The notes under the pieces are model-generated. The model was given only the letters and a program-made list of their open reading frames with translations, made no database searches and was not told where the DNA came from. A DNA stretch of 64,000 nucleotides from Escherichia coli (lineage in GTDB: Bacteria; Pseudomonadota; Gammaproteobacteria; Enterobacterales; Enterobacteriaceae): NCBI RefSeq assembly GCF_009931435.1, contig NZ_CP043414.1, one strand, 5' to 3'. Position numbers and translations under genes: made by a program. This document shows positions 7,454 to 29,400 of the stretch, piece after piece (position 1 is the first letter of the stretch; every line of letters starts with the position of its first letter).

Positions 7454-8398
7454 TTAGCGTTTGCAAATTGAGACTAATTGCTCTTCCATCCACTGATGGC
7501 CTTTGTCGCGCCCGGCAGCTTCATGCCAGGAGAGATAACAGGTTCTGCTATTTTGTTTTAATGGCAGCGGTAATACCTGTAACTCTAAAGATTCAGCGAA
7601 CTCTTCAGCCAGCCAACGCGGCGCAATAGCGACCAGATGCGTTTGCGACACCACGCTCAGTACACTCATCATTGCCATGCCCTGATACGCGATACTGGCT
7701 TGTTTATCTACCGTGTCATACCACGGTTGACTAAATGACGCGAAACGATCGAGCGAAACTGCCGCATGTTGTTCGTTATAAACATCATGTTTCAGTAACG
7801 GGCCTTTAATTGTTGGATGATTTTTGCTGGCTACCAGCACCATTTCATCTTTAAATAATGGCACACTGGTAAATTCAGGACGATGGAAGTCTTCATAACT
7901 AATCACAAACTCCGTTTCCTGATAACGCAGTTGATGTTCAGTGTTCTGATTTAATGAAGACTTGAACATAACATGTATATTTGGCGCAGTTTGCTCAATG
8001 TGATTATAAATCTGCGAGGTCAGAATGCTGTCTAACGGACTGCAAACACAAAGATGAAATACACGTTCACTGCTCGCGGGTTCAAAACCTGAACCTGGCA
8101 ATTCATTTTGTACTAATTGCAATGCCTGACGAACTGAACCAAAAAGTTGAAATGCGCGAGCAGTCGGTTGAATGCCACGGCCATAACGAACAAAAAGCTC
8201 GTCATTAAACATCACCTTCAGGCGTGCAACCGCGTTACTGACCGCAGGTTGCGACATCCCCAGAACATGAGCGGCACGGGTGATGTTTTGCTCCTGCATC
8301 ACGGCATCGAAAACGGTTAATAAGTTGAGATCGACCATGCGTAGTTGTGGCTTGCTTAACTCCGCCGTCTCTGGTTGATCTGTTTGTACCTCTGGCAT
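7454..8398 (-). CDS. leuO: LysR-family transcriptional regulator LeuO
   Basis: Frame 7454..8482 trimmed to conserved MPEVQTD start (314 aa); HTH near N-terminus; AT-rich divergent region shared with the leu operon. Confidence 0.85.
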
Positions 8399-9056
8399 AC
8401 TTAACTCCACTGTCACACTTAACTCCCTTTCCCTTATTGGAATGCAGAGAAATAATCCTCGAGAATATGATTTATCATGCATATAAAATAAGAAAAAGGA
8501 AAATGAGAAAAATTAGGAAAACATAAAGATACGGGTTCTTATAAAAACAGAACCCATTGCCGAGTAAAGAGTCATTTACCGCAGCATAATAATCCATAAT
8601 GTTTTTGTTGCGAAAACAATCTAATCATAACTACCGCGAATACTCAATCATCCACAAAATGGATTAAATGTGCTTTTTTAATAATTAATTTATATGTTTA
8701 ATGCATTAATTCTTAACATTAATAGAACAATAATATTCACCAAATGAATATCAAAAAATTAGCAAAACATATAATTCAATACAAATCATCAAGATAGGTT
8801 TTGTAACGCGTGCATTTTATCCCCCTTTTCCTCGTTGATTAGATGCAAAAATTTATTCTGAAATATGTCAACCGATGAAAAGCGTCGGTGGTTAAGCAGA
8901 AATTAATATCGCTTGTTTTAACCACCGCAGCACAATTAGCTAATTTGACGAATGCAGAACTCACTCTGGCGGAACGTTTTTGTTGCGTCAGGGTTGACAT
9001 CCGTTTTTGTATCCAGTAACTCTAAAAGCATATCGTATTCATCTGGAGCTGATTTA

Positions 9057-9235: not shown

Positions 9236-11898
<2,663 letters not shown>

Positions 11899-24709: not shown

Positions 24710-24731
24710 GTAGCCGCATCAGGTATGTAAC

Positions 24732-24810
24732 GCCTGATGCGACGCTGACGCGTCTTATCTGGCCTACACGTTCCGATTTTGTAGGCCGGATAAGCAAAGC
24801 GCATCCGGCA
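24732..24810. repeat. REP elements (inverted pair) between araA and araD
   Basis: GCCTGATGCGACGCTGACGCGTCTTATCTGGCCTAC and GTAGGCCGGATAAGCAAAGCGCATCCGGCA. Confidence 0.75.
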
Positions 24811-24877
24811 TTCTTTTCCCCCTCGCCCCTTTGGGGAGAGGGCCGGGGTGAGGGGAAACGACCTCTCAGGAGTCAAC

Positions 24878-25573
24878 ATGTTAGAAGATCTCAAACGTCA
24901 GGTTTTAGAAGCCAACCTGGCGCTGCCAAAACACAACCTGGTCACGCTGACCTGGGGCAACGTCAGCGCCGTTGATCGCGAGCGCGGCGTCTTTGTAATC
25001 AAACCTTCCGGCGTCGATTACAACGTCATGACCGCTGACGATATGGTCGTGGTCAGCATCGAAACCGGTGAAGTGGTTGAAGGTACGAAAAAGCCCTCCT
25101 CCGACACGCCAACTCACCGGCTGCTCTATCAGGCATTCCCGTCCATTGGCGGCATTGTGCATACGCACTCCCGCCACGCCACCATCTGGGCGCAGGCGGG
25201 CCAGTCAATTCCGGCAACCGGCACCACCCACGCCGACTATTTCTACGGCACCATTCCCTGCACTCGCAAAATGACCGACGCAGAAATCAACGGCGAATAT
25301 GAGTGGGAAACCGGTAACGTCATCGTTGAAACTTTCGAAAAACAGGGTATCGACGCAGCGCAAATGCCTGGCGTTCTGGTCCATTCTCACGGCCCGTTTG
25401 CATGGGGTAAAAACGCTGAAGACGCAGTGCATAACGCCATCGTGCTGGAAGAAGTCGCTTATATGGGGATTTTCTGCCGCCAGCTTGCTCCGCAGTTACC
25501 GGATATGCAGCAAACATTGCTGGATAAACACTATCTGCGTAAGCATGGTGCGAAGGCATATTACGGGCAGTGA
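24878..25573 (+). CDS. araD: L-ribulose-5-phosphate 4-epimerase
   Basis: Frame 24848..25573 trimmed to conserved [19 protein letters not shown] start (231 aa). Confidence 0.95.
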
Positions 25574-25580
25574 TTTAAGA

Positions 25581-25612
25581 GAAGCATCTGGGTAACAGGT
25601 GCTTCTTTTTTA
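25581..25612 (+). terminator. Rho-independent terminator after araD (may act bidirectionally)
   Basis: GAAGCATCTG-GGTAA-CAGGTGCTTC stem followed by TTTTTTATT; the minus-strand 147-aa ORF ends 7 nt beyond it. Confidence 0.8.
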
Positions 25613-25619
25613 TTATCAC

Positions 25620-26063
25620 TCAGGCAGCAAGAAAAATTTCTGCCCCTATTCCCTCAATTAACAGTGCTTCTAATGAAGGGGCAATATACACCGCATCATC
25701 AAGATCTAAATTACCAAAACCGACGAGATATAAACCAAACCCCTCTTTTCCTTCGGCATAAAAAATCACTTTTCCGCCTTCATCATCGCCAATCGCCAGA
25801 GCGTGTGGAATATAATCCTGAATATGGTATGCGGCATTCATCTCACTACAGCCTGCGGCTCCCCAAATTCTGATATAAGACGTTGAATCCATCACTTTTA
25901 ATTCAACGTCTGCCATCAGAGTAATAAAGGTTAAATACTCATCAGGAATTGCAATGTGAAAATAATTTTTTATAAGTTGACCGAGTCCACTATAATCTAA
26001 TACGGGTTCCCATGACGCCAGCGTGAATTTTTCATGCAATTTAACAATAGGAAACTTACTCAT
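25620..26063 (-). CDS. Hypothetical protein, SUKH/SMI1-KNR4-like (candidate immunity protein); third gene of the islet operon
   Basis: 147-aa ORF; ATG with AAGGA SD; start overlaps upstream ORF stop (ATGA); motifs IPDEYLTFI, AIGDDEGGKVIFY, DDAVYIAPSLEALL resemble SUKH-family immunity proteins; AT-rich. Confidence 0.6.
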   Translation of the reverse strand: MSKFPIVKLHEKFTLASWEPVLDYSGLGQLIKNYFHIAIPDEYLTFITLMADVELKVMDSTSYIRIWGAAGCSEMNAAYHIQDYIPHALAIGDDEGGKVIFYAEGKEGFGLYLVGFGNLDLDDAVYIAPSLEALLIEGIGAEIFLAA

Positions 26064-26407
26064 TTCATCATCCTTTTCTTATACTTCTGGGGTAAAATAT
26101 CCGTTATAACGCCTTCACCTATAAATCCGGCTTCCCACAGCAGAAACTCACTGCCACAGCTGATCCACGGCATTACAAGTTCAGGATTTAAAAACGCCAT
26201 CTCAAGATTGTGTACCATTTCGCCAGGGTGAATCGTTTTTCCATAGCCGTCGATGTAAATCCGGCAGCCATAACCATATGAAGATAACTCATTAATCCCT
26301 TTAAAAAAGACAGGACAGCCGTAAAAACGGTTAGATGATAACAAAGGGCCACGATGCGATTTTTGCGTTGAAGAGTATAGTGTAATGGTAATCCGAACCT
26401 TTCTCAT
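26060..26407 (-). CDS. Hypothetical 115-aa protein; second gene of the islet operon
   Basis: ATG preceded by GGAGG SD 5 nt upstream; 12-nt spacer from upstream ORF; overlaps downstream ORF start; no recognisable family. Confidence 0.55.
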   Translation of the reverse strand: MRKVRITITLYSSTQKSHRGPLLSSNRFYGCPVFFKGINELSSYGYGCRIYIDGYGKTIHPGEMVHNLEMAFLNPELVMPWISCGSEFLLWEAGFIGEGVITDILPQKYKKRMMK

Positions 26408-26419
26408 CTTCCCTCCGAA

Positions 26420-26752
26420 TTAATTACGCTCTTCAATCAAATATGTCGTTTTATTAGTCCAGGCGATTATTTTATAGGGTCTGTTAATAATACCTTTCTG
26501 CGTATAATCAGCCATAATTTCTGATGGATACCAACCATAACCAAAGCAAAATAAAGCACCTACATTAATAAGCTCACTAATTACACTTAGTTTCTCATTT
26601 TCATTACTGGTATTTTTGCTAAATCGATCATTGTCGGCAGAAAAACCCAACCGTTGCATTTTTTCAACGTTATCATATCCGGTCACTACCGTTTCAATGA
26701 AATTATCACTTATGCTAACCACTATAATACAATCGCTCGGCAGTGTGTTCAT
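26420..26752 (-). CDS. Hypothetical 110-aa protein; first gene of the islet operon
   Basis: ATG with AAGGA/AGGGG SD; AT-rich; no recognisable family. Confidence 0.55.
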   Translation of the reverse strand: MNTLPSDCIIVVSISDNFIETVVTGYDNVEKMQRLGFSADNDRFSKNTSNENEKLSVISELINVGALFCFGYGWYPSEIMADYTQKGIINRPYKIIAWTNKTTYLIEERN

Positions 26753-26975
26753 TTCCCCTTGATCCTTCTAAAGTCATTTTTTCACCACAACAATGAATTC
26801 AATAGATATAATGAATATATGCAGCCATTTATATATAATTAGCATTACACCCTAATGCCTTAATATAACCCAAACAGAAATCGTCCGATAATCAGAAAAT
26901 GTAATCATTGAATAAAGCAGGAACCTTTTTATCGCATGAGAAACCGAAGATGGTTGATGCCGTTTCGTCAAACAT

Positions 26976-27035
26976 TACTGTACAAAATATCAGTGTTCAG
27001 TAAAAAACCAGGCTATAATCAAGCCTGGTTTTTTG
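26976..27035 (+). promoter_or_regulatory. polB (dinA) SOS control region: LexA box plus promoter-proximal perfect hairpin
   Basis: TACTGTACAAAATATCAGTG (CTG-N10-CAG) at 26976-26995; AACCAGGCT-ATAATCA-AGCCTGGTT hairpin followed by TTTTT ending about 14 nt before the polB GTG. Confidence 0.6.
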
Positions 27036-27048
27036 ATGGATTTTCAGC

Positions 27049-29400
27049 GTGGCGCAGGCAGGTTTTATCTTAACCCGACACTGGCGGGACACCCCGCAAG
27101 GGACAGAGGTCTCCTTCTGGCTGGCGACGGACAACGGGCCGTTGCAGGTTACGCTTGCACCGCAAGAGTCCGTGGCGTTTATTCCCGCCGATCAGGTTCC
27201 CCGCGCCCAGCATATTTTGCAGGGTGAACAAGGCTTTCGCCTGACGCCGCTGGCGTTAAAGGATTTTCATCGCCAGCCGGTGTATGGCCTTTACTGTCGC
27301 GCCCATCGCCAGTTAATGAATTACGAAAAGCGCCTGCGTGAAGGTGGCGTTACCGTCTACGAGGCCGATGTGCGCCCGCCAGAACGCTATCTGATGGAGC
27401 GGTTTATCACCTCACCGGTGTGGGTCGAGGGTGATATGCGCAATGGCGCTATCGTTAATGCCCGTCTGAAACCGCATCCCGACTACCGCCCGCCGCTCAA
27501 GTGGGTTTCTATTGATATTGAAACCACCCGCCACGGTGAACTGTACTGCATCGGTCTGGAAGGCTGCGGGCAGCGCATCGTTTATATGCTGGGGCCGGAG
27601 AATGGCGATGCCTCCGCGCTTGATTTCGAACTGGAGTACGTCGCCAGTCGTCCGCATCTGCTGGAAAAACTCAACGCCTGGTTTGCTAACCACGATCCCG
27701 ATGTGATCATCGGCTGGAACGTGGTGCAATTCGATCTGCGAATGCTGCAAAAACATGCCGAGCGTTATCGTATTCCGCTGCGGCTGGGGCGCGATAACAG
27801 TGAGCTGGAGTGGCGCGAGCACGGCTTTAAAAACGGTGTCTTTTTTGCCCAGGCCAAAGGGCGGCTAATTATCGACGGTATCGAGGCACTGAAATCCGCG
27901 TTCTGGAATTTCTCTTCATTCTCGCTGGAAACCGTCGCTCAGGAGTTATTAGGCGAAGGAAAATCTATCGATAACCCGTGGGATCGGATGGACGAAATTG
28001 ACCGCCGTTTCGCCGAAGATAAACCTGCGCTAGCAACTTATAACCTGAAAGATTGCGAACTGGTGACGCAGATCTTCCACAAAACTGAAATCATGCCGTT
28101 TTTACTCGAACGAGCGACGGTTAACGGCCTGCCGGTAGATCGGCACGGGGGATCGGTGGCGGCGTTTGGTCATCTCTATTTTCCGCGAATGCATCGCGCT
28201 GGTTATGTCGCGCCTAATCTCGGCGAAGTGCCGCCGCACGCCAGCCCTGGCGGCTATGTGATGGATTCGCGGCCTGGGCTTTATGATTCGGTACTGGTGC
28301 TGGACTATAAAAGCCTGTACCCGTCGATCATCCGCACCTTTCTGATTGATCCCGTCGGACTGGTAGAAGGTATGGCGCAGCCTGATCCAGAGCACAGTAC
28401 CGAAGGCTTTCTCGATGCCTGGTTCTCGCGGGAGAAACATTGCCTGCCGGAGATTGTGACTAACATCTGGCACGGGCGCGATGAAGCCAAACGCCAGGGC
28501 AATAAACCGCTGTCGCAGGCGCTGAAGATCATTATGAATGCCTTTTACGGCGTGCTCGGTACTACCGCCTGTCGCTTCTTCGATCCGCGCCTGGCATCGT
28601 CGATCACCATGCGTGGTCATCAGATCATGCGGCAAACCAAAGCGTTGATTGAAGCGCAGGGCTACGACGTGATCTACGGCGATACCGACTCAACGTTTGT
28701 CTGGCTGAAAGGCGCACATTCGGAAGAAGAAGCGGCGAAAATCGGTCGTGCACTGGTGCAGCACGTTAACGCCTGGTGGGCAGAAACGTTGCAACAGCAA
28801 CGGCTGACTAGCGCACTGGAATTGGAGTATGAAACCCATTTCTGCCGTTTTCTGATGCCAACCATTCGCGGAGCCGATACCGGCAGTAAAAAACGTTATG
28901 CCGGGCTGATTCAGGAGGGCGATAAGCAGCGGATGGTGTTTAAAGGGCTGGAAACCGTGCGCACCGACTGGACACCGCTGGCCCAGCAGTTTCAGCAGGA
29001 GCTATATCTACGTATCTTCCGCAACGAGCCATATCAGGAGTACGTCCGCGAAACCATCGACAAACTGATGGCTGGCGAACTGGATGCACGGCTGGTTTAC
29101 CGTAAACGCCTTCGCCGTCCACTGAGCGAATACCAGCGTAATGTGCCGCCTCATGTACGCGCCGCACGCCTTGCGGATGAAGAAAACCAAAAGCGCGGTC
29201 GCCCCTTGCAATATCAGAACCGCGGCACCATTAAGTACGTATGGACCACCAACGGCCCGGAGCCGCTGGACTACCAACGTTCACCGCTGGATTACGAACA
29301 CTATCTGACCCGCCAGCTACAACCCGTGGCGGAGGGAATACTCCCTTTTATTGAGGATAATTTTGCTACACTTATGACCGGGCAACTTGGGCTATTTTGA
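27049..29400 (+). CDS. polB: DNA polymerase II (B-family)
   Basis: 783-aa ORF, GTG start; exonuclease and polymerase motifs (YGDTDS). Confidence 0.95.

Follow-up and report, generated by a model that had tools for sequence, protein, structure and literature searches.

A probable immunity-only cassette against Rhs toxins in the araD-polB gap of Escherichia coli, with a stand-alone homologue of EF-Tu domain 3

Polyimmunity loci, the orphan immunity gene arrays of polymorphic-toxin systems, were reportedly described by Zhang, Iyer and Aravind in 2011. They are defined as strain-variable tandems of immunity genes that share one orientation, are separated by short gaps and have no intervening toxins (PMC3482391), and the notion that orphan immunity genes act against type VI secretion system (T6SS) attack by non-kin is an established concept. 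The elongation factor EF-Tu has emerged as a repeated target or cofactor of the toxins of T6SS and of contact-dependent inhibition (CDI) systems (PMC9825190, PMC5737660, 10.1101/2025.10.28.685041, 10.64898/2026.05.10.723254). Here we describe a small AT-rich islet between araD and polB in a 64,000-nucleotide stretch of Escherichia coli contig NZ_CP043414.1 (the window), which carries three genes that we call A, B and C. Our analysis indicates that this islet is probably an immunity-only cassette, that is, a heterogeneous polyimmunity locus, directed against three different Rhs toxins. Like the polyimmunity loci of Zhang et al. 2012 (PMC3482391), it is a toxin-free and strain-variable tandem of unrelated families in one orientation with short gaps, and it includes a SUKH member. 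The islet and its genes are the following.

25574-26976, no strand assigned: AT-rich islet of 1,403 bp, where islet-free strains have a few bases from the araD stop codon to the polB LexA box
26420-26752, minus strand: gene A, 110 aa, of an unannotated family of about 110 aa found behind one type of Rhs toxin domain (from homologue contexts)
26060-26407, minus strand: gene B, 115 aa, stand-alone and EF-Tu domain 3-like, of an unannotated family (from profile homology and Rhs contexts)
25620-26063, minus strand: gene C, 147 aa, SMI1/KNR4 (SUKH-1) immunity protein by family (from Pfam, PDB and homologue contexts)

An initial annotation, made from the letters of the window, had described three small minus-strand open reading frames (ORFs), and its account of their layout stands. 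The genes lie in tandem, all start with ATG, and are preceded at 5-10 nt by Shine-Dalgarno-like AAGGA (A), GGAGG (B) and AAGGA (C) motifs; 12 nt separate A from B, while the TGA of B and the ATG of C share the four nucleotides ATGA. The further suggestion that the products are probably co-translated depends on this overlap, which is specific to one allele of B. Relative to a 109-aa allele, the 115-aa allele has lost 1 nt close to its 3' end, which replaces the last three residues by nine and creates the ATGA overlap; the 109-aa allele ends 15 nt short of the C start codon. Because the short allele shares its end point with more distant family members, the 115-aa extension is derived. It is also widespread, its exact sequence being found on 203 contigs. 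A, B and C are real genes and not chance ORFs: all three have homologues, and a check for selection on the frames gave dN/dS values below 1 throughout (0.11-0.19 for C, 0.30 for A and 0.53-0.63 for B, the last from few substitutions). We infer that they form a single transcription unit, and that their products bind toxins and protect the cell.

Gene C provides the clearest link to a described family. The SUKH/SMI1-KNR4-type similarity proposed in the initial annotation is borne out by a match to nearly the entire Pfam model PF09346 (SMI1_KNR4; i-E=7.3e-4, 20.6 bits, model positions 12-124 of 125), by a match to the Smi1/Knr4 structure PDB 3d5p (E=1.5e-4) and by homologues at 43-54 % identity that carry precomputed PF09346 assignments and the NCBI name SMI1/KNR4. 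By these matches C is a SUKH-1 member. Homologues 51-55 % identical to C adjoin toxin genes in three independent cases. The one in Photorhabdus australis (54 %) lies 7 nt past a 1,642-aa PAAR-Rhs protein with a terminal Tox-SHH domain (PF15652), the one in Pluralibacter gergoviae (53 %) belongs to a VgrG-DcrB-PAAR-Rhs locus and lies 7 nt past an orphan Tox-SHH fragment, and on two metagenome contigs the homologue, 55 % identical in one of them, overlaps the end of an Rhs/Tox-SHH gene by 4 nt. Among themselves, the neighbouring Tox-SHH domains show 67-74 % identity, and the GGRLQSHHGLQQEW motif is common to them. In Affinibrenneria the C homologue lies in a run of small genes without a toxin, another SUKH gene among them. 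As a side observation, a 47 % identical homologue (P0020) is labelled Bacillus cereus in a third-party annotation (TPA) record, on a 134-kb contig; the family is otherwise found here in Enterobacterales, and the label could reflect contamination or distant transfer.

The initial annotation had recognised nothing in the other two proteins, which no longer holds: A belongs to a family of Rhs immunity genes, and B is an EF-Tu domain 3 homologue. For A, no usable match was found in NCBIfam, PADLOC or PHROGs and none in Pfam, and a word-indexed search of 5.8 billion proteins returned close relatives only, for A as well as for B. A tblastn search of plasmids revealed an A homologue on pPlas2 of Rahnella aceris (42 % identity, E=6e-22) that shares 4 nt with the end of an orphan Rhs fragment, made up of an RHS core (PF03527) and an unassigned C-terminus of about 150 aa. 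The array to which it belongs lies downstream of a VgrG-DUF2169-DUF4150-Rhs series and also holds an Imm15 gene. Seven further homologues (39-45 %) came from a metagenome scan, and all six for which upstream sequence is available follow an Rhs protein, which in one case is full-length (1,467 aa). The Rhs proteins beside A homologues share one toxin domain past the DPLGL motif, ending '...GNDYFLGPGQHLPGGAPE...', and no match to this domain was found in Pfam, NCBIfam or the PDB. With the AlphaFold2 model of A (pLDDT 67.5), Foldseek returned 48 AlphaFold DB entries, with TM-scores up to 0.83 and of at least 0.7 for most; all are 'uncharacterized' proteins of about 110 aa, from many Proteobacteria and one Bacteroides. 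The pPlas2 region itself (L007:6816-12775) has three or more orphan Rhs C-terminal fragments with a small gene behind each, and the PLSDB gene table omits the Rhs fragments at 8027-9004, 9464-10453 and 11137-11808.

For gene B, too, no usable match was found in NCBIfam, PADLOC or PHROGs, and Pfam gave none for B alone; a tblastn match in Variovorax is weak (28 %), yet convincing in alignment. In an exhaustive search of 1.84 billion cluster representatives, 503 proteins matched the B profile at E<=1e-3 (119 of them at E<=1e-10), mostly stand-alone proteins of about 100 aa. When a 60-member profile was compared with all PDB sequences, every one of the 57 distinct matches at E<0.1 was to EF-Tu, in domain 3 (residues ~300-393), the best with E=1.1e-6 over profile positions 5-96 of 99. 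In hhalign, the B family scored 96.8 % against an EF-Tu domain 3 alignment (E=2.4e-10, 87 columns), and the only recurrent Pfam match among the 60 members was GTP_EFTU_D3 (PF03143), seen in 2-6 of them and in two at E<=1e-3; Pfam found no Imm family in the same set. These profile comparisons indicate that the B family is homologous to EF-Tu domain 3. The G domain and domain 2 are absent from B, as expected from its 115 aa and from the stand-alone size of most of its relatives. No description of an EF-Tu domain 3-like immunity protein was found in the literature searched, and Zhang et al. 2012 (PMC3482391) make no mention of EF-Tu.

Members of the B family occupy the same kind of position as those of the A and C families. 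Three of them from different 50 % clusters, P0029 (43 % identical to B), P0031 (41 %) and P0034 (37 %), lie 1-8 nt past a toxin C-terminus, P0034 following an orphan Rhs fragment within a prePAAR-PAAR-Rhs locus. The toxin domains ahead of them are 53-57 % identical and share the pattern 'YRAVGPxEL...KYFTTS...AFGDxPYT...VDGGIPAYV', with no match found in Pfam, NCBIfam or the PDB. In another protein (P0038) the B domain is fused to a domain 36 % identical (E=2e-14) to a different Rahnella gene in immunity position, an arrangement that corresponds to a polyimmunity protein. Further members, from Superficieibacter, Leminorella and a metagenome contig, lie in clusters of small genes that lack a toxin. 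A scan of genome contigs with an eight-sequence B alignment yielded three loci only.

Two loci of the B family deserve separate mention. In Superficieibacter electus, the ispA-yciA interval (L015:7657-8315) holds a two-gene islet of EF-Tu domain 3-like small proteins, a 104-aa gene 48 % identical to B and, upstream of it, a divergent 101-aa paralogue (hhalign 95.7 %, C-terminal half). In a metagenome-assembled genome (L033:1-1698), a single ORF (P0165) joins Rhs/YD repeats, a deaminase-like 'CAEQHAIKNA' stretch and a C-terminal B domain; this may be a true fusion, or gene calling may have run past the end of a toxin gene into its immunity gene.

Taken together, A, B and C are mutually unrelated, and each family is found in immunity position behind a distinct Rhs toxin, as a check of the genes beside their homologues brought out. 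This supports the option of an orphan immunity-gene cassette raised in the initial annotation. We propose that the three products would be immunity proteins of different families, each with its own target among the Rhs C-terminal toxins that type VI secretion delivers. The proposed target of C, which it would bind and inhibit, is a Tox-SHH (HNH-type) nuclease; A would block the unannotated toxin with the 'GNDYFLGPGQHLPGGAPE' motif, and B, as an EF-Tu domain 3-like beta-barrel, the unannotated toxin marked by 'YRAVGP...KYFTTS...VDGGIPAYV'. No toxin, integrase or transposase lies nearby, as the initial annotation had stated, and no known defence gene is present in the 64-kb window; tblastn with the three cognate toxin families and with Rhs cores gave chance-level matches only in the window (E>=0.1). 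Since neither the islet nor the window holds a toxin, the cassette would guard the cell against toxins injected by other bacteria and not against its own.

Other functions would suit a compact operon in a variable AT-rich islet, especially one in which A and B lack annotation, and the initial annotation had also considered a toxin-antitoxin or anti-phage module, in which one of the small proteins would itself be toxic. This option found no support: PADLOC gave no match to A, B or C at E<=1, NCBIfam gave none, and no toxin or antitoxin family was detected by Pfam. It is made very unlikely by the position of each family behind secreted Rhs toxins, which is that of immunity genes, and by the loss of single genes through frameshifts with the others kept, which is unexpected for an addictive pair.

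The occurrence of homologues in orphan Rhs-CT/immunity arrays of Rahnella and Pluralibacter raises a different question, namely whether the islet is the remnant of a former rhs toxin locus, a series of orphan rhs-CT/rhsI cassettes from which the toxin fragments were deleted. Against this, tblastn finds no remnant of an Rhs core, YD-repeat or toxin C-terminus in the islet or the window, the 12-nt gap and the overlap between the genes leave no space for one, and none of the genomes examined has an rhs locus at the araD-polB site. We regard such an origin as extremely unlikely.

The polyimmunity reading is consistent with the sporadic distribution of the islet. Of 5,426 complete E. coli genomes, two have the islet, which occupies the same site with 91 % identity, its three genes annotated as 'hypothetical', and a low-stringency search of this set found no further carriers. 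A 97 % identical copy adjoins araD in Escherichia sp. MOD1-EC7003, and a metagenome contig contains an identical A-B-C trio with intact frames. The exact A, B and C proteins are present on 36, 203 and 172 contigs, respectively, the named records being mostly of E. fergusonii and some of E. albertii. In this exact-sequence look-up the accession numbers of the three proteins are often consecutive, which suggests that the genes are adjacent in the E. fergusonii and E. albertii records as well. In the araD-polB gap of E. fergusonii GCA_029719885.1 (L002:7278-9696), A and B are absent and a C homologue with 86 % identity is flanked by genes for a 202-aa DUF218 and a 393-aa DUF6348 protein; such different cargo shows that insertions at this site vary across Escherichia. 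Compared with MOD1-EC7003, the islet of the window (97 %) is more similar than the araD flanks (94-95 %), whereas compared with E. coli 2014C-3075 it is less similar (91 %) than the flanks (94-96 %). Because islet identity exceeds that of the flanks in one comparison and falls below it in the other, these values argue for exchange of islet alleles between lineages.

Several observations weigh against the polyimmunity reading. The AlphaFold2 model of A is of marginal confidence, and that of B, built from a five-sequence alignment, is of low confidence (pLDDT 43.5), so that its all-beta assignment by DSSP is unreliable. Immunity is usually allele-specific, which is why the modest identity of A, B and C to their toxin-adjacent homologues (only 37-55 %) counts here. 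Related toxin/immunity DNA was found in no genome of the complete E. coli set. The promoter of the predicted A-B-C transcript is presumed to lie in the non-coding leader upstream of A, and a consensus scan found no sigma-70-like site there at its threshold. B evolves under relaxed constraint, judging by its dN/dS from few substitutions, and carries a frameshift in E. coli 2014C-3075, whose NCBI annotation retains no more than an 88-aa remainder of it; in MOD1-EC7003 it is A that is frameshifted, by a 1-nt insertion. The C frame is intact in every allele examined.

Some of these points would fit a decaying relic, that is, an islet that once conferred immunity and is now silent, for example as H-NS-silenced AT-rich DNA, and drifts with at most C under selection. 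Such a relic would account for a broken A or B in two of the four lineages examined, for the dN/dS of B and the 1-nt deletion that rewrote its C-terminus, for the lack of a consensus promoter upstream of A and for the AT-richness of the DNA. We nevertheless consider it unlikely, given that all three frames are intact both in the window and in the identical metagenomic contig, that the exact proteins recur on many contigs, and that dN/dS is below 1 for all three genes and only 0.11-0.30 for C and A. Moreover, decay overlaps with the polyimmunity reading and does not exclude it.

The homology of the B family invites an idea about how its members might act. A duplicated copy of EF-Tu domain 3 may have given rise to the family, whose members would then act as mimics, as a decoy for a toxin that docks on this domain; this is speculation, and we consider it unlikely. 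Under such a scheme, the 'YRAVGP...VDGGIPAYV' Rhs toxin would dock on domain 3 of the victim's EF-Tu, either as its target or as an activating or entry cofactor, much as several T6SS and CDI toxins use other EF-Tu surfaces, and the B-family protein would present a high-affinity decoy of the domain 3 surface. If this were true, an immunity protein would be derived from the toxin's own cellular partner, and its ancestry would reveal the target of an uncharacterised toxin family. We also considered B as a TriTu-like immunity protein and rejected this, the TriTu fold being alpha/beta.

The insertion site is sharply defined. The gene order in the window is araB-araA-araD, then polB and rapA, all on the plus strand, with the araD stop codon at 25571-25573 and the GTG start of polB at 27049. 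In a K-12 derivative, as in E. coli N96, polB begins 74 nt from the araD stop, close to the spacing of about 75 bp given for K-12 in the initial annotation, and the initial description of a 1.4 kb AT-rich insert between the araD stop and the LexA box agrees with our junction alignments (K-12, N96 and 2014C-3075), which place the extra DNA exactly there. Its GC content is 0.34-0.43, against 0.53-0.59 in the flanks. Homology to islet-free strains ends at the araD stop codon and restarts at the hairpin ahead of polB. The non-coding features of the region are the following.

25577-25609, plus strand: terminator-like hairpin with a T-run and a 14-pair stem, just past the araD stop and 3' of gene C on the other strand
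26753-26976, minus strand: non-coding AT-rich leader upstream of A, with no ORF that has homologues
26978-26993, plus strand: polB LexA (SOS) box, variant CTGTACAAAATATCAG
27001-27035, plus strand: conserved hairpin ahead of the polB start, at which the sequence again matches islet-free E. coli

The first hairpin is borne by the islet, as it is common to the 2014C-3075 copy and absent from K-12 and N96. The LexA box and hairpin ahead of polB had been described as conserved; this is correct for the hairpin and not for the box, whose sequence is CTGTACAAAATATCAG in the window and in 2014C-3075, CTGTATAAAACCACAG in K-12 and N96, and CTGTACAAAACAACAG in E. fergusonii. The box of the window thus differs from that of K-12 and N96 at four of 16 positions, and the variant is linked to the islet haplotype. 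Its right half-site reads TCAG in place of the usual ACAG, which might alter the SOS control of polB. Neither terminal repeats nor a target-site duplication were found at the islet, nor an integrase or transposase, and Rfam found no match in it. An imperfect 18-nt direct repeat joins the araD 3' end (25511-25528, CAAACATTGCTGGATAAA) and the right islet junction (26969-26986, CAAACATTACTGTACAAA), probably by chance.

The flanks are those of E. coli, with polB-rapA 98.5 % identical to E. coli genomes. Relative to islet-free N96, the 3' half of araD is 100 % and the 5' end of polB 99.4 % identical, and co-transfer of the flanks from E. fergusonii, to which they are only 93-97 % identical, was rejected on this ground. 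Over 24878-27548, the islet aside, identity to N96 is 99-100 % from araD through the first 500 bp of polB and then drops to 96.6 %, a local recombination mosaic around the site. Further upstream, the araA-araD intergenic region (24710-24870) contains palindromes resembling repetitive extragenic palindromic (REP) or bacterial interspersed mosaic (BIME) elements (GCCTGATGCGACGC..., GTAGGCCGGATAAG...) and a G/C-rich 'CCCCTTTGGGGAGAGGGCCGGGGTGAGGGG' repeat; this region varies in length, with 168 nt in the window, 284 in K-12 and 114 in N96.

The islet itself is of modest significance, as a clean and minimal enterobacterial immunity-only cassette in a core-genome gap beside the polB SOS box that displays gene-by-gene decay. 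Its relatives are of broader interest. Two immunity families, the A-like and the B-like, have no Pfam or NCBIfam model here, so that their carriers are annotated as 'hypothetical', and two Rhs C-terminal toxin domains without a match in Pfam, NCBIfam or the PDB can now be matched to them. A widespread family in immunity position, with 503 cluster representatives, is a stand-alone homologue of EF-Tu domain 3, and with EF-Tu a recurrent partner of T6SS and CDI toxins, this leads to a testable hypothesis on what a new toxin family targets or uses as cofactor.

How the parts of the islet relate to described systems can be summarised from gene to locus. C resembles the SUKH-1 proteins (PF09346, PDB 3d5p) in the extent of its alignment and in the place of its homologues after nuclease toxins, and departs from them in the weakness of its match and in having no toxin beside it in the window. 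The B profile spans the whole of EF-Tu domain 3 (PF03143), including GGRxxP, PG[DE] and a C-terminal strand like 'xEGG.TVG.G.V'. Unlike EF-Tu, B is of a stand-alone type of about 100 aa without GTPase domain or domain 2, its family has conserved residues of its own (two Cys, and a Trp in 'LWE'), and the family occurs in toxin-immunity contexts and not in translation operons. TriTu, which confers immunity to the EF-Tu-ADP-ribosylating Rhs toxin TreTu (PMC9825190), is likewise a small Rhs immunity protein of Enterobacteriaceae with an EF-Tu theme. It forms a flat five-stranded sheet with two helices (PMC9825190), however, unlike the EF-Tu domain 3-like barrel predicted for B, and the profile of the B-cognate toxin matches no PDB chain in sequence at E up to 10; TreTu has the PDB entry 7ZHL.

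At the level of the locus, the islet shares its immunity families with the orphan rhs-CT/rhsI arrays of Salmonella, Serratia and Rahnella pPlas2, and differs from them in that no Rhs core or toxin fragment is present in the window. With three genes, it is smaller than the 'extended' polyimmunity loci, which have four or more. It also differs from polyimmunity loci in having no adjacent recombinase, in its place in a housekeeping intergenic gap by an SOS box, and in that, to the extent tested, Pfam, NCBIfam and the published Imm list lack two of its three families. The kind of locus is already known; the interest lies in the EF-Tu-like B family, together with two unannotated Rhs toxin domains newly paired with their immunity families.

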